DNA from: Candidatus Nanobsidianus stetteri
Lineage (GTDB): Archaea > Nanobdellota > Nanobdellia > Nanobdellales > Nanobdellaceae
Direction of reading: 5' to 3'
DNA: 32,000 bases
Assembly: GCA_000387965.1 (NCBI GenBank)
Contig: APJZ01000003.1
Span: 1 to 32,000, forward strand
Below, in pieces: positions 3,989-30,898 of the stretch (positions within the stretch are counted from its first letter, which is position 1; every line of letters starts with the position of its first letter). Made by a program: the position numbers and the translations under genes. The notes beneath the pieces were generated by a model. It ran no database searches. It saw only the letters and a list, made by a program, of their open reading frames with translations, and was not told the DNA's origin.

Positions 3989-4086
3989 GTATTTTATTTT
4001 ACTTGTAAATAATATTATATAAAGTTTTATTTAAATTTTATAACAATGTTATGAATTTAAAAATATAATATATAATTTTAGATAAT

Positions 4087-5430: not shown

Positions 5431-7743
5431 TTACTTAAATAGCCAATTATATATTATTTTTATATCTCTCTTTATTAATTTTCTAGCCTCAAGCTTCTTT
5501 ATTTTAAAATGATCAGATATTTTTGCAAAACTCCATGATAATAAAAATTTTCCAATTAATAATTCTTCTTTATCTATCTTTGGTTTATCCTTTTCAGTAT
5601 ATAATAAATAATAGATATATAATAATTTTACTACATCTGCAGCAGCTTCATATGTCATAGGTGAAGATAAATAACCTTCCAATCTTTCTATTTGATTATC
5701 TGTCAAATTTAATTTATAATGTGGTTTAAACTTATATGGAGTTTCTAACATTTTTAATATTAGTTCTGGAGATAAATCAAAATATACATCTGATATTTGA
5801 TTTATTAATCTCCATCTAAATTCATAATTTAACTTTTTAACTATTTTTTCTGATCCCTCATTTATTGGTTTTATTACTATACCAGAATATTCCCCAGAAA
5901 CCTTATTTTTTTCTGGAGATAAATGAACTAATACAAAATTATTTTTTTGCCAGAAATTTAATAATTCATAAGTTATTCCAAAACTAGAACCAATCCAATC
6001 ATAATTATTTTTCTTAGCCCAATCATATAGTTTATCTAGTGATAAAGATCCCAGACCCATACCTTGAATTTCTGGTATTGTAGCAATTCTAACAATTCTT
6101 AACCCCTTTAATTTAGCAAATTCTCTTATTCTATAATGTTTAACTATTATATCTGGTATTATATTTCCCTTTGGTTTATAATCTTTTAACATTTTATTAA
6201 TTGTATCATCATCTATACCACCTTCATATGCTATATGTATTCCATTTACAATTTTTCCATTTGATAATTCTAAAACAAAAGCATCATGGTGTGGTGCATC
6301 AGCAAGCATTGCTATATCATTCGGTTTATTTTGATAATGTGCTAAAATATATATTCCAACAAAATTCTTTAATTTTGGATCATCATTGTAAAACCATTCT
6401 TTCATTGGTATTTTATAAAATCTTACATCCTTATTTTTTATTAACTCTTTATCTCTCTCATCAATTTCTGAAGATTCGGAATCTAATAATAAGGTATCAT
6501 ATAGCCATTTTTCAATTGGATCTTGTTCATTATATCTAATTGGCTCAATCATATTATATTTGTATATCTTAAAATCCTTCAGAGAATTTAAATATTTCAA
6601 AAATTTGACAGAAAAGGATCTCCCAGCCCCCTCATATCCATGAATCGTAGAAGAAAATACAATTTTATCATATTTCTTTGTATATTCCAATAATATATTT
6701 ATACCAATACCTGCAGCTTCATCAACAAATAATATATCATATTTTTTTCCCAATATTTCAGATGGTTTTCTATATTCAATATATATTTTATTATTTATTA
6801 CTATTTTTCTCTCACTTATTTCTTTATATTTTATATTATTCTTATTTAATCCTAACTTTAGAAATTCGAATAATGTCTCTACATTATTAAATTCTGGTGA
6901 TGTTATACCTATATCATATACTTTTTTACTATTTAATAATATTTCAGAAATTCCAGAAATTGCTAAACCGAGAGATGCGCTTTTTCCTCTCCCTCTATCT
7001 GCAATAATTAAATATATTGATTTTTCATCGCTTAACAAATTTTCTAAAAGAGAAAGAACATTTACTTGATCTTGTGTTAAACATAATTTATATACTCTAT
7101 CTGAAAATTTTCTATTATCTGGCAATAATATTTTCTTTCTTCCTGGTGGATATGCTTCTTCTAATATACATTCATCATTTATTCCTTTTATTAATCCTTT
7201 CTCTATATCATATATAATTATATTATCATATTGAAGTAATTTACCTTTGAATCTATATTCAAAATATTTTTTTACATCTTCTAACTTATATGGAGGAGTT
7301 AATAAATGTTCATGGAAGGTTGTATAATTTTCTTCAAAATGTTCAAAATCTTTAATTAAGAAAAATGCAATACCAATTCCAGATAGAGTTTCAATAATTC
7401 TACCTATATAATCTGGAGTTAATGATTTATACATATCTAAAATCAATACATCATATGTTTTTCCTAAAATTTTTTTAGAATCTTTATATTTAATTCTTTC
7501 TATATCTAGAAAATCTATCCTTTCTTTTAATTTCTCAAACCTATATAAATAGTCTCCATTAAAATCTTCAGATATATATAAAATCCTTATTCTATCTTTA
7601 AAGTTCTTAACTTTTTCATAATATATTTTTATCAAATTTGTTAAAATATCGAAATAATCCTTACCAGATAAGACAACAACTCCTCTGTGATTATTTCTAA
7701 TTATTTTACATAATAATTTATTATAATCATTTAATATATCCAT
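5431..7743 (-). CDS. tmcA: tRNA(Met) cytidine acetyltransferase TmcA (NAT10/Kre33 homologue)
   Basis: The helicase module has ADRGRGKSASLG (Walker A), FVDEAA and TIHGYEGAGRSFSVKF. The GNAT module has RIVRIATIPEIQGMGLGS. The track ORF extends to a TTG at 7761. I prefer the first ATG at 7741-7743 (MDILNDYNK...) because an ATTATAAG TATA-like box lies 22-29 nt upstream of it. The start is uncertain by 18 nt. Confidence 0.9.
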   Translation of the reverse strand: MDILNDYNKLLCKIIRNNHRGVVVLSGKDYFDILTNLIKIYYEKVKNFKDRIRILYISEDFNGDYLYRFEKLKERIDFLDIERIKYKDSKKILGKTYDVLILDMYKSLTPDYIGRIIETLSGIGIAFFLIKDFEHFEENYTTFHEHLLTPPYKLEDVKKYFEYRFKGKLLQYDNIIIYDIEKGLIKGINDECILEEAYPPGRKKILLPDNRKFSDRVYKLCLTQDQVNVLSLLENLLSDEKSIYLIIADRGRGKSASLGLAISGISEILLNSKKVYDIGITSPEFNNVETLFEFLKLGLNKNNIKYKEISERKIVINNKIYIEYRKPSEILGKKYDILFVDEAAGIGINILLEYTKKYDKIVFSSTIHGYEGAGRSFSVKFLKYLNSLKDFKIYKYNMIEPIRYNEQDPIEKWLYDTLLLDSESSEIDERDKELIKNKDVRFYKIPMKEWFYNDDPKLKNFVGIYILAHYQNKPNDIAMLADAPHHDAFVLELSNGKIVNGIHIAYEGGIDDDTINKMLKDYKPKGNIIPDIIVKHYRIREFAKLKGLRIVRIATIPEIQGMGLGSLSLDKLYDWAKKNNYDWIGSSFGITYELLNFWQKNNFVLVHLSPEKNKVSGEYSGIVIKPINEGSEKIVKKLNYEFRWRLINQISDVYFDLSPELILKMLETPYKFKPHYKLNLTDNQIERLEGYLSSPMTYEAAADVVKLLYIYYLLYTEKDKPKIDKEELLIGKFLLSWSFAKISDHFKIKKLEARKLIKRDIKIIYNWLFK

Positions 7744-7775
7744 ATATAAATTATCAAGCAATTACTTATAATCGT

Positions 7776-7918
7776 TTAATAAAATGTTAACCTTTTGTTA
7801 AAATTGTATTAAACTATGTTAAAACATTAAAATATTTCGTTAATGAAATATTAAATAATAGATATACACTAGTTAAATGGTGTTAAATTGTTAATAGAAT
7901 ATGTTAAATATATGTTAA
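7776..7918 (+). repeat. helically phased TTAA / (T)GTTAA direct-repeat array
   Basis: There are 13 TTAA cores, starting at 7776, 7787, 7798, 7809, 7819, 7827, 7840, 7851, 7873, 7883, 7891, 7904 and 7915. The mean step is about 10.7 bp. Nine are GTTAA and seven TGTTAA, all in one orientation. The array fills the intergenic gap between the rgy-N stop and the tmcA start. Confidence 0.8.
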
Positions 7919-7919
7919 A

Positions 7920-9692
7920 CTAAAGTAAATAATATCTTAATTTCATATCAAGTGATTTCAATAATTTTTCATCATCTACAAAAACTATTGATAATCCCTT
8001 TGATATTCCGCCAGAATATAATCTAGAAGTTCTTCCAGAAGCCTGTAAATATGTTTTAAGATCTACAATATTTAGATATATATTTTTATTTTCATCTACT
8101 TCTATAGAAACGTCCGGATTTTCCTTTAATTTATCCAATATTTCTGTATTATCAATGTAAATTTTCAAAATATTATATAATGTTAATATATCATTAGCAA
8201 AGAATTTTAAATATCCAACCAGTTCTACCTTATTTCCATTTAAAAAATCAGAGATTAATTTTAAATCTCCAGAAGACAATTTTTTCATATTTTTTCTTAA
8301 TCTTGTAAGAATTTTTGTTATTCTATCTTTCTCTATCTCAGGTATATATGGTAAAATTAAATTAGATAAAATTATTATATTCATTATATTTTTCTCAAGA
8401 TTTCTAATATTTATTTTTATCTTTGGTATACCTAAAAATATCGCATATTTTATTCTTTCTGGCATATTAACTCCTCTAGTTAATATTCCATATGGATCTG
8501 TAATACTAATTAAGAAATTTATTTTTCCTTCATAAAAATCATTTAATATACTTTCGATTTCTTTTGTTTTTGTTTTTGAATATATTAAACCAACTTTTAT
8601 ATTATTTGATACTAAATAATTATAAATTTCCTTCATATATTCTATTCCTCTCTCTTTTGGAACAAATATTAATCCTCCATCTTCCAACTCTTTTAATAGA
8701 TTTAATAATTCTTCCTTTATATCTTTCTTAGGAACATAATATACATCTATAACATTTCTAATCTTTGAACTTCCAGTTCCAATAGTAAAATTAGCCAATT
8801 CTTTATATAATCTAACTCTTTTTCCTCTTAAACTACCAGTAGCTGAAGATAGAACAATTAATCCATGGTTTTTATTTTTAATTTCTAAAAATCTTTTATA
8901 TAAATCACTATTAAAATCCAATTTACCATTTAATTTTAGATCTATTACTTTTTTAGCAATATTTATGTCATCTTCACTATAACCAATTAAAATAAACAGT
9001 TTCTCAATATTTTTTGATCCTTTAAAAAAAGAATCTACATCATCTACAAAAGCAATATCAAATTTTTTACCTTTTAATATATCAAAATTTTTAGTTAAAA
9101 ATTGGTTTGAAATAATTAATATATTAAAATCTTCATTCTTTATTTTTTCTTTAATTTCTTTTTTATTACTACCATAATATGCTATAAACTTTATATTTAG
9201 ATTTAAACTACTTATAAATTTATCAAATAAATCATTAAATTGTTTTACAAGTAATCTTGTAGGTAATATTATTAATATCTTTTTATTATATTTACTAGAA
9301 AAATAAATAGATGAAACTATAATAAATGTTGATTTTCCAACACCTGTTGGTGCTATCATAGAAAAACTATTATTTTTATATAATCTAATAAACCACATTA
9401 TTTGTACTTTCCATGGATTAGAATTTAATACCTTTTTAAAAAATTCAGAAAATTTATTAACTTCTTTATATAAATTGTAAATATTTGAATAATCTTTTAA
9501 TTTTCCTTTTTCAGATAATTTTTTATATAAAAGCTCTCTAAAAGTATTTTCATCCTTTATATTTAATAATTCTACTATTTCATTATCATCTAAATCATTT
9601 TCACAGGGAAGACCTTGTGAGAGTCTATAAGAAGAAATTGTGTTATTACAATTAAAACATAAATTTTTTATATATAAAGGAATGTAATCCAT
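7920..9692 (-). CDS. rgy: reverse gyrase, N-terminal helicase-like subunit (split gene, no topoisomerase domain)
   Basis: 590 aa. It has an N-terminal Zn-finger (CFNCNN...C) and FFKKVLNSNPWKVQIMWFIRLYKNNSFSMIAPTGVGKSTF...ILPTRLLVKQ. It also has FVDDVDSFFKGSKNIEKL and the motif VI-like QASGRTSRLYSGGISKGLSIVFVDD. The ORF stops right after the helicase module. Confidence 0.85.
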   Translation of the reverse strand: MDYIPLYIKNLCFNCNNTISSYRLSQGLPCENDLDDNEIVELLNIKDENTFRELLYKKLSEKGKLKDYSNIYNLYKEVNKFSEFFKKVLNSNPWKVQIMWFIRLYKNNSFSMIAPTGVGKSTFIIVSSIYFSSKYNKKILIILPTRLLVKQFNDLFDKFISSLNLNIKFIAYYGSNKKEIKEKIKNEDFNILIISNQFLTKNFDILKGKKFDIAFVDDVDSFFKGSKNIEKLFILIGYSEDDINIAKKVIDLKLNGKLDFNSDLYKRFLEIKNKNHGLIVLSSATGSLRGKRVRLYKELANFTIGTGSSKIRNVIDVYYVPKKDIKEELLNLLKELEDGGLIFVPKERGIEYMKEIYNYLVSNNIKVGLIYSKTKTKEIESILNDFYEGKINFLISITDPYGILTRGVNMPERIKYAIFLGIPKIKINIRNLEKNIMNIIILSNLILPYIPEIEKDRITKILTRLRKNMKKLSSGDLKLISDFLNGNKVELVGYLKFFANDILTLYNILKIYIDNTEILDKLKENPDVSIEVDENKNIYLNIVDLKTYLQASGRTSRLYSGGISKGLSIVFVDDEKLLKSLDMKLRYYLL

Positions 9693-9733
9693 ATTTTCTT
9701 TTATTTTAAAAATTAATTTAAAAATATTCTATT

Positions 9734-11955: not shown

Positions 11956-12132
11956 TTATAATATATTATTTTTATATAAGGTTTCTTTTTTCATCTTTCT
12001 TCTATAATCACCCCACTTATCATCTGGAGAAAATTTAGGAGGTATTATTCTAGATGTTTTATTACCACAAATTGGACATATTTCTTTAAATGTATATATT
12101 TTACAATTTTTACATTTTCTAATCTCTTTCAT
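11956..12132 (-). CDS. nop10: H/ACA RNP protein Nop10 (58 aa, not in the ORF track)
   Basis: My own translation: MKEIRKCKNCKIYTFKEICPICGNKTSRIIPPKFSPDDKWGDYRRKMKKETLYKNNIL*. It has a CxxC...CxxC zinc ribbon plus the PPKFSPDD....YRR Nop10 signature. It overlaps the aIF2-alpha 3' end by 14 nt and ends 6 nt before the next gene's start. Confidence 0.85.
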   Translation of the reverse strand: MKEIRKCKNCKIYTFKEICPICGNKTSRIIPPKFSPDDKWGDYRRKMKKETLYKNNIL

Positions 12133-12895
12133 ATTTATTTATTTCATAAACTATATTATAATTTTTAGCTTCTTTATCTATTAATTCTAACATTTCTTTT
12201 TCCTTTTTTTGTAAATCAGATGGACTTGTAGTAACATATTTTAACATATATGTAGGTGATCCCAAATATTTAATCATTATATTTAGATCCTTTATTTTTT
12301 TAAGAAATTCCTTTATTTTATATATTCCATCTCCATCTAAACAATATGCTTGCATTATATATGTAAATTCATATTTTGGTGGGTTTAAATAATCAATTAT
12401 ATATTTATATAGTAACTCAGAATATTTTTTACTTATTTTATATTTATCTAGAACACTTTTTCCATTTATATAAGTTTCTAAAAATACATTATAAAGTTTA
12501 TTTTCTGGAACAATTTTAAATATTATATCTTTTTCCAATTTATTCATATCTATATTTTCCTTCTCACTCATTATTTTCAATATATTATAAGCAACCATCT
12601 CCCTTTTATATTCAAAAATCTTTGCTTTTTGTTTATTTTTATCAACTCTCTTTAAAGATAAAGTAACCAATCTATTTTGCTCATCCACATCAAGTACCAA
12701 ACATACGATCTTTTTACCTTCTCTAACTAGAATTCTCGGATTTGTAATTCTTTTATTTGATAATTCATCTATTGGAATTATTCCATTAAAATTTTCATAT
12801 TCATCTAAGCTAACTTTTACATCTACATCTGATATATTTTTTACAGTACATATGACATAATCATTCACCTTTGGAGAATCTTTTCTCTTATACAT
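12119..12895 (-). CDS. eif2a: translation initiation factor aIF2 alpha subunit
   Basis: 258 aa. The N-terminal S1 domain is PKVNDYVICTVKNISDVDVKVSLDEYENFNGIIPIDELS...GKKIVCLVLDVDEQNRLVTLSLKRV, followed by the helical and alpha-beta domains. Confidence 0.9.
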   Translation of the reverse strand: MYKRKDSPKVNDYVICTVKNISDVDVKVSLDEYENFNGIIPIDELSNKRITNPRILVREGKKIVCLVLDVDEQNRLVTLSLKRVDKNKQKAKIFEYKREMVAYNILKIMSEKENIDMNKLEKDIIFKIVPENKLYNVFLETYINGKSVLDKYKISKKYSELLYKYIIDYLNPPKYEFTYIMQAYCLDGDGIYKIKEFLKKIKDLNIMIKYLGSPTYMLKYVTTSPSDLQKKEKEMLELIDKEAKNYNIVYEINKYERD

Positions 12896-25007: not shown

Positions 25008-25207
25008 AATATTATCTAAAAAAATGGTAATTTATAAATACATGGTTCTACTAAAATTGGCATAACTTACTAATAGTAAGATAACTTTACTACTAAGGAG
25101 ATTCTTAAAATATTTTTATATTTGAGTTTATTAGAAATTACATTTAAATAATAATAATTTTTATATAATATTTCTAGAAATTGAAATTTTTATTTAATAA
25201 ATTAAAA

Positions 25208-25280: not shown

Positions 25281-25334
25281 ATATAGCATATCATATTCTT
25301 TAAATTTAATAATATTTTTATTAAACAATTTTAT

Positions 25335-26351
25335 ATGAATGATATTGAAATGCTTAATTTTTTTAAATTAAAAGACAATCCTTTTAAATTAGAGGTGATT
25401 TTAGAAACTTTTGTTGGATATAATTTAGAAAGAACAAAATTATTAAATTCAATAAATAATAAAGAAAAGATTATTTTAGTTTCTGGTCCTACAGGAGCAG
25501 GAAAAACAACATTATTATTATGGATATATAATAATCTTAAAACAAAGAATAAAGTATATATTTATAGACCTTTTGAAAAAATGGAAGAATTTGAAAAATA
25601 TTTTATTGAAAAATTATCCTTTTTTGAAAGAATAATATATAAATTTAAGAAATTCAACATAGTAGAATATTTAAATAAGAAAAATCTAATAATATTTTTA
25701 GATGAAGCCACATTTTGTGATGATAATATTTTAGAATGGATAAAAGTAATATCTGATCAAACAAATTGTACATTTATATTAGCTGGCTTACCAGAACTTG
25801 AAGAAAGATTACTAAAACAACATAGAACATTATATGAAAGAATTATAACAAAAATATATTTAAAATCTCTTGATCCTGAAAGTGGTAAATTATTAATTAA
25901 AAAAAGATTAGAACTTGCAGGTAATCCCAATTTATTTACAGAAGATGCAATAGAAGAAATATACAATTTATCTGGAGGCTTACCAAGGGAAATATTAAAA
26001 TATTCTTATGAGGCATTATTAATTGCATATAGAGAAAAGAAAAATATTGTTGATAAAGATATTGTTGAAAAAATATATGAAGCAAAGAAACCTCCAACAG
26101 ATTTATTAAAATTAACAGAAAAACAAAGATATATAGTAGAATTAATAACAAAATATGGCCCAAAAACAGTAAATGAATTATTAAAATTATTCAAAGAAAG
26201 ATATTCTGACACAACAATTCATGCAATATCAAATATATTAAAAAGAATGACCGAAAGTAAAATATTGATCAGGACAAAGGTAAAAGGTAAATTTATATAT
26301 GATGTTGTACCCGCAATAAAGGATTATTTCATAAGAGAAATAAATAAATGA
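25335..26351 (+). CDS. AAA+ ATPase with C-terminal winged-helix domain (ExeA/Orc1-Cdc6-like)
   Basis: 338 aa. It has Walker A LVSGPTGAGKTTLL, Walker B LIIFLDEA and a sensor-2-like SGGLPREIL. The C-terminal LTEKQRYIVELITKYGPKTVNELLKLF...ILKRMTESKILIR looks like a wHTH. Confidence 0.7.
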   Translation: MNDIEMLNFFKLKDNPFKLEVILETFVGYNLERTKLLNSINNKEKIILVSGPTGAGKTTLLLWIYNNLKTKNKVYIYRPFEKMEEFEKYFIEKLSFFERIIYKFKKFNIVEYLNKKNLIIFLDEATFCDDNILEWIKVISDQTNCTFILAGLPELEERLLKQHRTLYERIITKIYLKSLDPESGKLLIKKRLELAGNPNLFTEDAIEEIYNLSGGLPREILKYSYEALLIAYREKKNIVDKDIVEKIYEAKKPPTDLLKLTEKQRYIVELITKYGPKTVNELLKLFKERYSDTTIHAISNILKRMTESKILIRTKVKGKFIYDVVPAIKDYFIREINK

Positions 26352-28601: not shown

Positions 28602-28631
28602 TTTTTAAAATTTTCTATAATTCAAAAAAAT

Positions 28632-29048
28632 ATGAATAATATAGATATAATAAAGGAATTTTTGTATACTCTTTTAATATTATTTTCTGTAGAAACATTT
28701 TTAGACTTAATATCATTCATTATATATCCATCAATTTTTCCAAATTATATTAATATTTCTGTTGAAATTTTCTTATTTATAATTTTTCTATTATCAATAT
28801 TTTCAATTTATTTAATAAGAAAGGATAATTTATATGGTTATATAATTTCATTATTTATATCAATATTAATTCTTTTTTCAGCTTTTACATTAAATTCTAA
28901 TGATATAATAGATATAGCGGTGAGAAATGTAGCATCTAATTACGGTATATATCCAAATCCGATAATATTGTTTTTTGGCATTTCAATATTTTTAATAAGT
29001 ATAAGAAAAATTATTCAATTAAGAAAAACTAAAATTTCTTCAACTTAG
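28632..29048 (+). CDS. small membrane protein, unknown function
   Basis: 138 aa with about 4 hydrophobic helices. Its 3' end overlaps the convergent rpo10 gene by 20 nt. Confidence 0.55.
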
Positions 29049-29226
29049 CAATTATTTCTATTTGTTGAACGTGTCCTAGAAATATTTGTCTACAACAAGC
29101 TCTTTCCAATCCTAGTTCATCTAAAGCTTCCTTCATTGTTTTACCTTCATTTAATAATTTAATATATCTTTCATATAAATGTCCAATTGGTTTTCCACAT
29201 GTAAAACATCTAATAGGTATTATCAT
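29029..29226 (-). CDS. rpo10: DNA-directed RNA polymerase subunit N (Rpo10)
   Basis: 65 aa. [21 protein letters not shown]...[20 protein letters not shown] is the classic RpoN/Rpb10 zinc-bundle signature. Confidence 0.9.
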
Positions 29227-30607: not shown

Positions 30608-30898
30608 TTACTGTTTTTTAACAAGTACAATTTCTATACTTGATATTCTTCTCTTTTTACCAGTTTGATCTACTTGTCTTTCTTCAGAATCTATACTTAT
30701 ACTTTTTATATCAACTTGTCCAGCCATAAATTTCTTTCTTACTACTTCTGCTACATCTACTGCTCTAGATATATATCTTCCCCTTGCCTTTATTACAACT
30801 TCTTTTGCATCCTGGCTTGTAAATTGCATTGCTACAGCTGTTACATAGTTCATAAATGGCTTATTTCCTATATATATTATTGTTTGTTCTGCCATCAT
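30608..30898 (-). CDS. albA: Alba (Sac10b) DNA/RNA-binding chromatin protein
   Basis: 96 aa. IYIGNKPFMNYVTAVAMQF....AKEVVIKARGRYISRAVDVAEVVRKKF matches the Alba fold signature. Confidence 0.9.
   Translation of the reverse strand: MMAEQTIIYIGNKPFMNYVTAVAMQFTSQDAKEVVIKARGRYISRAVDVAEVVRKKFMAGQVDIKSISIDSEERQVDQTGKKRRISSIEIVLVKKQ

Follow-up and report, generated by a model that had tools for sequence, protein, structure and literature searches.

The window analyzed here, the whole 32,000-nucleotide stretch from Candidatus Nanobsidianus stetteri, a hot-spring nanoarchaeon, carries on its reverse strand rgy-N (7920–9692), encoding the helicase half of a split reverse gyrase with zf_Rg, DEAD and Helicase_C domains and no topoisomerase domain, and tmcA (5431–7743), encoding a Nat10-type RNA cytidine acetyltransferase with TmcA_N, helicase and GNAT_acetyltr_2 domains. 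Pfam searches confirmed the labels that the original prediction had given to rgy-N, tmcA and Alba. Upstream of tmcA, in the spacer that separates it from rgy-N, lies a row of 13 TTAA-core boxes (7776–7918, one box per 10.65 bp), recognizable by its positions, enrichment, phase and conservation in orthologs. This row is real and strongly conserved.

The spacer had been described as 158 bp long and as unusually long for the genome. The tmcA start codon is the ATG at 7741–7743, which is kept in all orthologs, and not the TTG at 7761, so the true spacer measures 176 bp. Other long gaps do exist in the window, but they contain tRNAs, Nop10, rpoN or divergent promoters; this is the longest feature-free spacer between same-strand genes, the remaining same-strand intergenic gaps being 0–73 bp. 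As had been claimed, the spacer holds no ORF, and the RNA folds of the array on the two strands are not significant (z = −1.04 and −1.39).

At its upstream end the first box directly adjoins the rgy-N stop codon (7920–7922). At the other end lies the tmcA TATA box TTATAAGT (7764–7771, reverse strand), which starts at −28 from the ATG and is invariant in 8 genomes, next to a BRE-like AAACGA (7772–7777) that overlaps the last box of the array. The array lattice extends onto this TATA box (−36 + 10.65), with which it is in register. In this genome, TATA elements occur at roughly −30 to −26 relative to the ATG, which suggests that transcripts are likely leaderless; with its own TATA box at −28, the tmcA transcript is probably leaderless as well.

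Layout and phasing of the boxes

The TTAA cores start at 7776, 7787, 7798, 7809, 7819, 7827, 7840, 7851, 7873, 7883, 7891, 7904 and 7915, with successive gaps of 11, 11, 11, 10, 8, 13, 11, 22, 10, 8, 13 and 11 nt; these positions and gaps, and the counts of GTTAA (9 of 13 cores) and TGTTAA (7 of 13) on the forward strand, are exactly those first reported. The box reads TGTTAA(A) on the forward strand and T-TTAA-C-A on the gene-sense strand. In Nanopusillus 12 of the 13 boxes are co-oriented; TTAAC, the reverse orientation, is found a single time in the spacer.

The density and phasing of the array are beyond anything else in the window, in line with the original claim that no other spacer is comparable. 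The 13 TTAA per 158 bp compare with a mean of 2.44 (sd 1.63) for the window, in which the next-densest stretch has 8. The composition-shuffle check that had been proposed was run as 20,000 dinucleotide-preserving shuffles of the spacer; 13 TTAA were matched or exceeded in 3/20000, 9 GTTAA in 0/20000 and 7 TGTTAA in 0/20000. The spacer makes up 0.5% of the window, yet contains 9 of its 43 GTTAA. Two further TTAA-dense spots, at 25295 and 13914, were inspected and rejected as ordinary AT-rich promoter or coding DNA, unphased and without the G flank.

The predicted helical phasing was borne out, with a best period of 10.65 bp and a resultant length R of 0.84. When the cores were placed at random, none of 20000 trials attained this value at a minimum gap of 4, and 167 of 20000 did so at a minimum gap of 8. 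Both pairs of 8 + 13 gaps amount to two turns each, so that the helical register is restored after each departure. The ‘skipped’ turn in the 22-bp gap holds ATATA at the expected lattice position (7862–7866), which places an in-phase TpA step there too; the alternating T.T.T pattern of this site is kept in orthologs, where columns T80, T82, T84, T86 and T89 are invariant.

The boxes are also organized on a longer scale. Adjoining the rgy-N stop codon is a quartet module (7882–7918, reverse strand) of the form TTAAY-N6-TTAAY-N8-TTAAY-N3-TTAAY, with cores at 0, 11, 24 and 32; the pattern is matched exactly, has a shuffle expectation of 0.01 per window and is present in all orthologs. A second quartet with the same core spacing (7818–7854, reverse strand) lies exactly 64 bp, or six turns, from the first, and the non-core identity of the two modules (0.38 against 0.31 expected) is not significant. 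The promoter-proximal boxes (7776–7812, reverse strand) form a regular 11-bp run at −36, −47, −58 and −69 from the tmcA ATG, and with this run a third 64-bp unit begins, which is ended early by the core promoter.

The spacing 11-13-8-10-22 repeats to give a 64-bp super-period, identical in all 8 Nanopusillus genomes. The 11-13-8 quartet is found again after 63/64 or 106 bp (6 or 10 turns) in Nanopusillus, KM4331-16, YN1 and a JGI lineage, with unrelated sequence between the cores, and this combination implies that the constraint is on geometry. We considered recent duplication as the source of the Nanopusillus super-period and rejected it, since inter-core similarity is not above chance; more recent duplications of about 106 bp are visible in L229 and YN1.

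Conservation among the Nanopusillaceae

Alignment of the orthologous spacers, another check proposed with the original prediction, shows that the array is present in relatives. In 8 Nanopusillus genomes 49 of 52 core columns are invariant, and the core-to-core distances are identical across all Nanopusillus. Pairwise divergence in these genomes is 0.019 for the cores, against 0.253 for base-matched non-core A/T columns and 0.193 for the 4-fold sites of tmcA, and TTAA is kept in all 8 genomes at 12 of 13 array positions compared with 13 of 38 in the tmcA coding sequence. On these comparisons the array cores are under purifying selection; mutational bias as the cause of core invariance is ruled out by the base-matched control columns.

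All syntenic Nanopusillaceae lineages that were examined have phased arrays of 9–30 boxes in the rgy-N/tmcA spacer; in 9 further lineages, each taken separately, both enrichment and phasing are far above chance. The position of the array is constant, in that it fills the interval from the rgy-N stop codon to the tmcA core promoter with the TATA box on the lattice. The number of boxes varies by lineage (RSNS15 has one extra 13-nt unit), and the array persists among lineages whose TmcA proteins are only 61% identical. L232 and L236, in which the rgy-N/tmcA synteny is broken, have neither the array nor a long spacer.

Searches for the quartet pattern in metagenomes returned, among the matches listed, L105 as the only further orthologous locus and otherwise single chance matches in unrelated AT-rich DNA; a viral collection gave single chance matches only. 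BLAST of the array against plasmids and phages found only marginal AT-rich matches, and the best of these, in an Enterococcus plasmid, had no phased array on inspection. Scans for sigma-70 promoters and intrinsic terminators, uninformative for an archaeon, gave counts equal to shuffles. Our literature search found no paper on a cis-regulatory element, origin or segregation site in the thermophilic Nanoarchaeota clade.

Box identity and a possible protein platform

Two properties of the box bear on what may recognize it. TTAAC/GTTAA accounts for 65% of 113 array units against 22% in the background (p = 3e-22), and the box is asymmetric and includes a G/C pair. Relative to the genes, the boxes of L235 point the opposite way and those of L230 and L231 are of mixed orientation, with the phasing retained, which indicates recognition of duplex DNA and not of an RNA motif. 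The second property is its distinctness from the promoter element. The archaeal TATA box, here T-TTAA-A at about −28, shares with the array the TTTAA core and the helical register, but this consensus form is avoided inside the array (2/113 units against 16.5%, p = 7e-7), where units carry C in the position at which TATA boxes have A. The box is thus a distinct site, and the array is not a stack of promoters.

An invariant palindromic tetranucleotide, drifting sequence between copies and locally dense, same-face spacing are also features of the SeqA-bound GATC clusters of E. coli oriC and the dnaA promoter. In contrast to those clusters, the array box extends asymmetrically past the palindrome, and TTAA is neither avoided nor enriched elsewhere in the window. 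We found no restriction-avoidance signature for TTAA in the window, where its observed/expected ratio is 0.95 under a second-order Markov model, like that of other AT tetramers.

The reading that we tentatively favor, at somewhat short of an even chance, is that the array is a cooperative platform on which a site-specific protein assembles along one face of the DNA, controlling the tmcA promoter, insulating it from rgy-N, or both. The protein would recognize a 6–7 bp box, TGTTAA(A/C), which on the gene strand is T-TTAA-C-A. With a box at each helical turn, its copies would be aligned along one face of the duplex over about 14 turns, probably binding cooperatively as a filament or gently wrapped complex organized in 64-bp, six-turn sub-assemblies. 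The platform would span the interval from the rgy-N stop codon to the BRE/TATA of tmcA; as it reaches these elements in register, its likeliest job would be to set tmcA promoter activity through recruitment or occlusion of TBP/TFB, and it may also act as a barrier that uncouples tmcA from read-through transcription of rgy-N. Of the readings offered in the original prediction, the cooperative DNA-binding-protein platform is the one favored by our data, through selection on the cores, strict spacing, the register into the tmcA TATA box and the flipping of the asymmetric flank; protein binding, its cooperativity and tmcA transcription as the target are inferred.

Like an operator or UAS, the array consists of sites that overlap or adjoin the BRE/TATA in helical register, in a layout kept in all lineages, and that are under purifying selection (0.019 against 0.253 and 0.193). 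The closest archaeal parallels are the UAS and operators of the Lrp family (M. jannaschii Ptr2 UAS, FL11, Ss-LrpB), in which cooperative binding of multimers recruits or blocks TBP/TFB; the array likewise lies directly upstream of BRE/TATA and is phased by integral helical turns. Lrp-family systems use 2–5 palindromic sites of 13–15 bp, whereas the array has 13–30 boxes of 6–7 bp, mostly as direct repeats, and no Lrp-type gene was seen near it. To our knowledge, 13–30 sites is far above any known archaeal operator or UAS.

No candidate for an array-binding protein was found among the neighboring genes, and small ORFs near the array had no DNA-binding domain matches. Smaller, paired-box sites did not turn up at any further promoter in the roughly 200 kb of nanoarchaeal sequence searched (about 5–9% of any one genome). 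Such a lack of smaller sites elsewhere is unusual for the regulon of a transcription factor, and a regulator with a single target is possible.

Alternative roles and implications

L235 has a second, 102-bp copy of the array, 100% identical to the first. It lies downstream of trm1, opposite the 3′ end of a convergent gene, in surroundings with no evident promoter-type context. This shows that the array can occur apart from the tmcA promoter, and autonomous roles, as a centromere, origin or chromatin anchor, remain candidates on that account. An autonomous chromosomal element of the Nanopusillaceae in place of a gene-specific operator, either an iteron-type origin away from orc1/cdc6 or a centromere or anchoring site, is in our view a doubtful explanation taken as a whole. 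A dedicated protein would polymerize on one box per turn, in a 10.65-bp register tuned to the DNA helical repeat at about 80 °C, and the exact L235 duplicate would be a second such site.

The more specific proposal that the array is a chromosome-organizing site independent of tmcA, a centromere-like or condensin/partition loading array that lies in this spacer by chance, we consider unlikely. The resemblance in architecture to type II/Ib centromeres is close. Those centromeres comprise about 10–13 direct repeats of 11 bp, split into two blocks around a central gap and set beside a promoter, and parC-type centromeres are bound cooperatively on one face to form a higher-order complex that also regulates transcription. 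Like plasmid R1 parC (ParR/ParM, type II), pSK41 parC and TP228 parH, the array has about 10 or more short direct repeats about one turn apart (13 boxes; 9–30 in other lineages), and the 11-bp units, two blocks, central interruption and neighboring promoter of R1 parC-type centromeres are seen in it as well. Across the sequences sampled, the array also appears to be rare or confined to one locus, and its exact second copy in L235 is in a non-promoter context. Centromeres are, however, normally linked in cis to their partition genes, and no ParA/ParM/SegA-type or RHH gene is adjacent to the array in any lineage (Pfam, ±10 kb, 10 lineages); the array is also phase-locked to the tmcA TATA box. 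Compared with parC-type systems the array has an unrelated box sequence, an archaeal chromosomal setting, no adjacent partition ATPase or RHH gene and an additional 64-bp super-period with its 11-13-8 irregularity.

Another explanation dispenses with a dedicated binder and attributes the array to the mechanics of the DNA itself. Through phased, kinkable TpA steps, about 150 bp would gain anisotropic flexibility; upstream of tmcA this would position chromatin of archaeal histones or of Alba, or give rise to a loop, and the effect might depend on temperature. We judge this to be rather unlikely. A TpA step is present at each of the 14 turns, including the ATATA at the skipped site, and Alba is encoded in the window (30608–30898). 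The 10.65-bp period comes close to the helical repeat that relaxed DNA would have near 80 °C, given its thermal unwinding, and the sub-period of 64 bp is similar to the length of DNA on a histone tetramer, roughly 60 bp. The array also resembles Widom 601 and archaeal-histone SELEX clones in having TpA once per turn over roughly 150 bp. Mechanics would, however, be served equally by TATA, TAAA or AATT, yet TTAA is essentially invariant with a selected C/G flank, and this conservation of exact bases in TTAA+C differs from the dinucleotide preference of nucleosome-positioning sequences. Such sequences have a period of about 10.2 bp, that of left-handed histone wrapping, whereas the array has 10.65–10.95 bp and lacks their alternating GC-rich and AT-rich phases.

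Static curvature, which the original prediction had offered as an intrinsically curved upstream element, was unsupported. With two wedge models, predicted curvature is unremarkable, placing the array only in the top 4–14% of 140-bp windows, with an end-to-end/contour ratio of 0.905–0.918 against a genome mean of 0.948–0.963. T(n)A(n) tracts, which Hagerman studied, are reportedly classically straight.

That the array is a replication origin, or part of one, appears quite improbable; the boxes would then be initiator sites of iteron or mini-ORB-like type, in an AT-rich spacer near replication genes. The original prediction had offered an iteron-like replication/partition site. GINS51 lies 1.8 kb and PolB 11.5 kb away, and our literature search found no paper that maps a Nanoarchaeota origin. 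Direct short repeats at helical spacing are found in iteron origins and euryarchaeal mini-ORB arrays. Like the 11/12-mers of Vibrio oriCII, plasmid iterons and the mini-ORBs of Pyrococcus and Methanothermobacter, the array comprises many short, asymmetric, phased boxes in an unusually long AT-rich spacer, and in L230 and L231 the polarity inverts, two oppositely oriented half-arrays flanking a box-free center of 24–56 bp in a layout that resembles an origin. In contrast to these origins, no initiator gene is nearby, with no orc1/cdc6 within ±10 kb in 10 lineages, and the TGTTAA box has no relation to the longer ORB elements. The protein at 25335–26351, originally labeled a wHTH ATPase, is a generic AAA+ protein of 338 aa and not recognizably Orc1, with no Orc1/Cdc6 match in NCBIfam or PDB. 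In local tests, GC skew follows the gene strand with no inflection at the array, there is no switch in gene orientation, and GC3 skew (0.315 vs 0.286) does not differ in the expected direction. The boxes of Nanopusillus are moreover co-oriented (12/13), and no box-free, DUE-like gap is apparent.

It is very unlikely that the array binds TBP through a row of decoy TATA boxes and so serves the transcription machinery as an ‘antenna’ or sink. TTAA is indeed the TATA core in this genome, where in front of 32 of 91 genes TTAA starts peak at −30 to −26, with T..A flanks, and the array is in register with the true tmcA TATA box; but the array avoids the consensus T-TTAA-A and has C in place of A, and its 11-bp site spacing is too tight, given the dimensions of TBP, for its simultaneous binding. 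Still less probable is an element acting in RNA, a repeated UUUAAC bound by a protein in the rgy-N 3′UTR, the tmcA leader or an antisense RNA. Nearly all Nanopusillus boxes share one orientation relative to the genes, and both flanking genes encode nucleic-acid enzymes, but the box orientation changes in L235, L230 and L231, helical-turn spacing with compensating 8 + 13 gaps is meaningless for RNA, and tmcA has its own TATA box and hence probably no leader. No Rfam family matched the array at gathering score or at E<=1. A neutral origin, as functionless tandem-repeat debris or AT-rich mutational bias, is strongly disfavored and hardly credible: TRF reports weak 10–11 bp tandem repeats in the array and the unit number varies by lineage, but evolution of the cores is about 10-fold slower than that of synonymous sites and base-matched neighbors, the array persists at 61% TmcA identity, and the spacing is kept while the inter-core sequence is randomized.

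The Nanoarchaeota (Nanobdellota) live as obligate ectosymbionts, and their genomes, about 0.5–0.8 Mb in size, have almost no non-coding DNA and very few regulators. Against this background, a non-coding element of 150–300 bp is kept across the family with base-level selection on 13–30 phased boxes, which ranks it among the most clearly defined candidate protein-DNA assembly sites of these organisms, and the array could be used as pull-down bait for finding its binder. Were it an origin or a centromere, it would open the question of how chromosomes are replicated and segregated in these cells. The array sits between two hallmark genes of thermoadaptation, those for reverse gyrase and an ac4C RNA acetyltransferase, and given this location it may expose how a minimal hyperthermophile controls both.

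Organization of the spacer between rgy-N and tmcA

The DNA analyzed derives from an Obsidian Pool nanoarchaeon; the window has a G+C content of 23% and the proteins it encodes share about 95% identity with their counterparts in Candidatus Nanopusillus acidilobi 7A and Nanobsidianus stetteri. Pfam searches agree with the gene names of the original prediction: rgy-N (7920-9692, minus strand), the helicase half of a split reverse gyrase, has zf_Rg, DEAD and Helicase_C domains and no topoisomerase domain, and tmcA (5431-7743) is on the same strand, so that the spacer follows rgy-N and precedes tmcA in the direction of transcription. The reverse gyrase is split throughout the family, with rgy-N products of 569-592 aa made up of zinc finger and helicase domains only. 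The 158 bp first given for the spacer do hold 13 TTAA cores; the true spacer is 176 bp, as tmcA plausibly starts at the conserved ATG at 7743 (770 aa), with a TATA box (TTATAAGT, 7764-7771, minus strand; invariant in the alignment) 28 nt upstream. The alternative TTG at 7761, taken by mechanical ORF calling and by one JGI gene call (776 aa), would sit 3-4 nt from this TATA box and was rejected. The spacer is an outlier in length among same-strand gene pairs, the others being 0-73 bp apart, but not in the window as a whole, where gaps of 118-327 bp hold tRNAs, Nop10, rpoN or divergent promoters. The 327-bp gap in front of the gene at 25335-26351 contains tRNA-Gln and around 200 bp of unassigned AT-rich DNA (25008-25206), and an apparently empty convergent spacer of 210 bp is filled by a 65-aa ORF (29029-29226, minus strand; ...CCR) that, judged by its sequence motif, is presumably RNA polymerase subunit N (Rpb10).

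The positions, gaps and flanking bases reported for the 13 TTAA cores (7776-7918) proved exact on recount. The window averages 2.44 ± 1.63 TTAA per 158 bp. When the spacer was shuffled 20,000 times with dinucleotides preserved, at least 13 TTAA arose three times, and nine GTTAA or seven TGTTAA never; nine of the window's 43 copies of GTTAA sit in this 0.5% of its sequence. Over the window as a whole, TTAA stands at 0.95 of the Markov expectation, with no sign there of the avoidance or enrichment associated with restriction or methylation. The cores fit a lattice with a period of 10.65 bp (resultant length R=0.84). Random placement equalled this fit in none of 20,000 trials when gaps of at least 4 were required, and in 167 of 20,000 when gaps of at least 8 were. 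Each of the two irregular 8+13 gap pairs totals two turns, and ATATA at 7862-7866 occupies the turn that had appeared skipped, so that a TpA-centred AT tetramer is present at 14 of 14 turns. Thermal unwinding puts relaxed DNA near 80°C close to this period, which we regard as a consistency check only.

The lattice carries a super-period of 64 bp, or six turns, with cores at 0, 11, 24, 32, 42 / 64, 75, 88, 96, 106 / 128, 139, followed by the promoter. A quartet of cores, TTAAY-N6-TTAAY-N8-TTAAY-N3-TTAAY, recurs at 7882-7918 and 7818-7854 on the minus strand (two copies in the window against 0.01 expected) and is found nowhere else in the window, even with one mismatch allowed. The next-densest 158-bp stretch has 8 TTAA. 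There are two quartets at each Nanopusillus locus; KM4331-16, a more distant Nanopusillaceae MAG, has three, at offsets of 63/64 bp. From one 64-bp unit to the next the core positions recur while the inter-core sequences are unrelated (38% identity against 31% expected, not significant), and thus the geometry seems to be held by constraint rather than by recent duplication. Strain YN1 and one JGI lineage also show younger duplications, each about 106 bp or ten turns long.

Conservation and reach of the array

The same spacer is found in eight further Nanopusillus genomes, the closed N. acidilobi genome among them, and alignment of these orthologs indicates that the boxes are under selection. 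Of the 52 TTAA-core columns 49 are invariant, with a mean pairwise divergence of 0.019, against 0.285 for the 97 non-core columns, 0.253 for non-core columns with a majority base of A or T, and 0.193 for the four-fold degenerate tmcA sites of these genomes. On these estimates the inter-core sequence drifts at close to the neutral rate, with the cores evolving about ten times more slowly; the base-matched A/T columns rule out core invariance as a side effect of AT-biased mutation. Such conservation of cores relative to the surrounding non-coding DNA is what would be expected of a promoter-linked operator array. All eight genomes retain TTAA at 12 of 13 array positions, compared to 13 of 38 in the tmcA coding sequence, and from the rgy-N stop to tmcA the core-to-core distances are the same in all Nanopusillus (11, 13, 8, 10, 22, 11, 13, 8, 10, 11, 11, 11). 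The sole change in unit number among the nine close genomes is in RSNS15 (L003, 3940-3955), which has an additional 13-nt unit (ATAGGTTAACATC) near the promoter-proximal end and lacks the last TTAA.

Genomic contexts were then fetched through TmcA and rgy-N homologs. Every lineage examined in which rgy-N is still followed by tmcA has a long spacer (158-307 bp) filled with a phased TTAA array: 20 cores in Nanobdella aerobiophila, 30 within 307 bp in YN1, 19 in the JGI lineage, 16 in KM4331-16, 15 in a Nanopusillaceae MAG with 62% TmcA identity (six consecutive 11-bp steps; R=0.92), 9-10 in NZ13-N/Nanoclepta minutus (R=0.96) and 9 in the ENA lineage (L235), where rgy-N identity is 48%. All of these exceed dinucleotide shuffles and are phased at 10.3-10.95 bp. 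Spacer and array are both absent from two relatives with broken synteny: in L232 the spacer ahead of tmcA measures 29 bp, and in L236 the stop of rgy-N is overlapped by the following gene. The syntenic block eIF2alpha-Nop10-PAC2-MJ0538-L44e-GINS51-rgyN-tmcA holds down to 47-48% rgy-N identity. In the three closed genomes the array lies at about 356 kb of 606 kb (CP010514.1), 394 kb of 669 kb (AP019769.1) and 28.6 kb of 773 kb (AP031373.1); its relative position of 0.59 in the first two suggests that these are colinear and numbered from a common point. In YN1 the beginning of the record and the array are about 29 kb apart.

The box and its relation to the tmcA promoter

Pooling 117 units gives a gene-sense box of T-TTAA-[C 63%, T 33%]-A-T, or TGTTAA(A) on the other strand; outside the array C follows TTAA in 7.6% of cases. 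Across lineages, units flanked by G/C (TTAAC or GTTAA) make up 65% of the array against 22% of background (p=3e-22). In Nanopusillus, YN1, Nanobdella and their relatives nearly all boxes have one orientation with respect to the genes; in L230 the promoter-distal and proximal halves are of opposite orientation, in L231 most boxes are inverted, and in the ENA lineage almost all are (aTGTTAAc on the gene strand). Because the box can be inverted with no loss of phasing or of its palindromic core, it is read on duplex DNA and not on the transcript. In L230 (9804-10000) and L231 (7780-7954) the two opposed halves flank a box-free centre of 24-56 bp, and in-phase TTAA continue to -26, -15 and -4 from the tmcA ATG, the last overlapping the start codon (TTAAATG).

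Upstream of 91 genes of these genomes, the first base of TTAA falls most often between -30 and -26 relative to the ATG (32 of 91 genes), with T..A flanks; the local TATA box is therefore T-TTAA-A, and most transcripts are probably leaderless. Elements of the form T-TTAA-A(A/T), with their centre about 28 nt ahead of the ATG, occur for example in the upstream regions 9693-9733, 4056-4086 and 28602-28631. The array boxes share the TTAA core yet avoid this consensus (2 of 113 units against 16.5% of background, p=7e-7), which rules out a stack of promoters. The array terminates at a BRE-like AAACGA and the tmcA TATA box, the position expected of a promoter-linked operator array, and the TATA box itself falls on the lattice (-36 + 10.65, about -25). 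An in-phase TTAA is itself the presumptive TATA element at four other loci (L229, YN1, L230 and L231).

Candidate functions of the array

The array thus has a defined sequence architecture, selection on cores and spacing, recognition at the DNA level, register with the promoter and family-wide conservation. Three options had been offered for it, of which we tentatively favour, at somewhat less than even odds, a platform on which a sequence-specific protein is bound cooperatively and acts on the tmcA promoter, on read-through from rgy-N, or on both. Such a protein would recognize TGTTAA(A/C), and one box per helical turn would align its protomers on one face of the DNA for cooperative binding in six-turn sub-assemblies. 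The resulting filament or wrapped complex might span the whole stretch between the stop of rgy-N and the BRE/TATA of tmcA, where it could recruit or exclude TBP/TFB, and could block read-through from rgy-N. We infer the binder, its cooperativity and its transcriptional output. No box pairs at one-turn spacing, as a regulon would have, were found elsewhere in about 200 kb of nanoarchaeal DNA except in a second copy in the ENA lineage.

That copy bears on an unlikely alternative, an autonomous chromosome-organizing or centromere-like site. A 102-bp segment of the L235 array (8231-8332), with six TGTTAA boxes and a AGGATATCCT palindrome, is repeated at 100% identity 3.8 kb away (12062-12175), directly after the trm1 stop codon and toward the 3' end of a convergent gene, with no tRNA or Rfam RNA nearby. 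The module can therefore exist away from the tmcA promoter, in favour of an autonomous site, and both L235 copies lie shortly after the stop codon of a gene; no adjacent partition genes, as a centromere would have, were found within ±10 kb in 10 lineages. An independent NCBI MAG of the same lineage has a contig that ends 7 nt past the duplicated segment, the classic signature of a true genomic repeat, and in two Logan assemblies of another lineage the contig stops within the array, 41 nt past the end of rgy-N, in a run of four TTAAC at 11-bp spacing. These contig ends in three independent assemblies (L239, 8846; L240, 11751; L241, 4983) suggest that the genomes concerned have a repetitive array or one that resists assembly.

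It is also improbable that the array encodes anisotropic flexibility that positions histone or Alba chromatin. The second option of the original prediction, an intrinsically curved element, was not borne out: the array is only in the top 4-14% of windows for static curvature in two wedge models, in agreement with T(n)A(n) tracts being classically straight. A replication origin, part of the third option, is quite improbable. No member of the orc1/cdc6 family lies within ±10 kb in any lineage examined, and the putative wHTH ATPase at 25335-26351 (338 aa) turned out to be a generic AAA+ protein (best AAA_22, a PEP-CTERM-associated ATPase model and, weakly, TnsC) with no Orc1/Cdc6 signature, matching neither Orc1/Cdc6 NCBIfam models nor Orc1 structures. 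Locally, GC skew tracks gene strand, gene orientation is not divergent at the array, and third-position skews are not separated as expected of an origin. A decoy array for TBP is very doubtful given the depletion of T-TTAA-A. An RNA element is more doubtful still: orientation flips between lineages, predicted folding of the two strands does not surpass that of shuffled sequence (z = -1.0 and -1.4), in line with the original prediction, and an Rfam search of the array was empty. Neutral repeat debris is the least likely reading in view of the slow evolution of the cores.

Among known systems, the R1 parC centromere comes nearest in architecture: ten direct repeats of 11 bp form two blocks around a promoter and are cooperatively bound by an RHH protein. 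In position the closest analogue is the archaeal UAS/operator of the Lrp family, such as that of Ptr2, and the conservation pattern resembles that of GATC clusters in enterobacterial oriC. Partition and initiator genes are lacking beside the array and skew does not switch there, so that on the tests as run it falls outside the centromere and origin families, and while it shares position and selection with promoter-linked operator arrays it is far larger than any described. We therefore class it among phased protein-binding repeat arrays, with a putative binder. Our literature search returned no paper on the array, nor on an origin or regulatory element of thermophilic Nanoarchaeota. Taken together, our data identify a real, robust, conserved and structurally intricate cis-element, which is notable in a lineage with almost no non-coding DNA.
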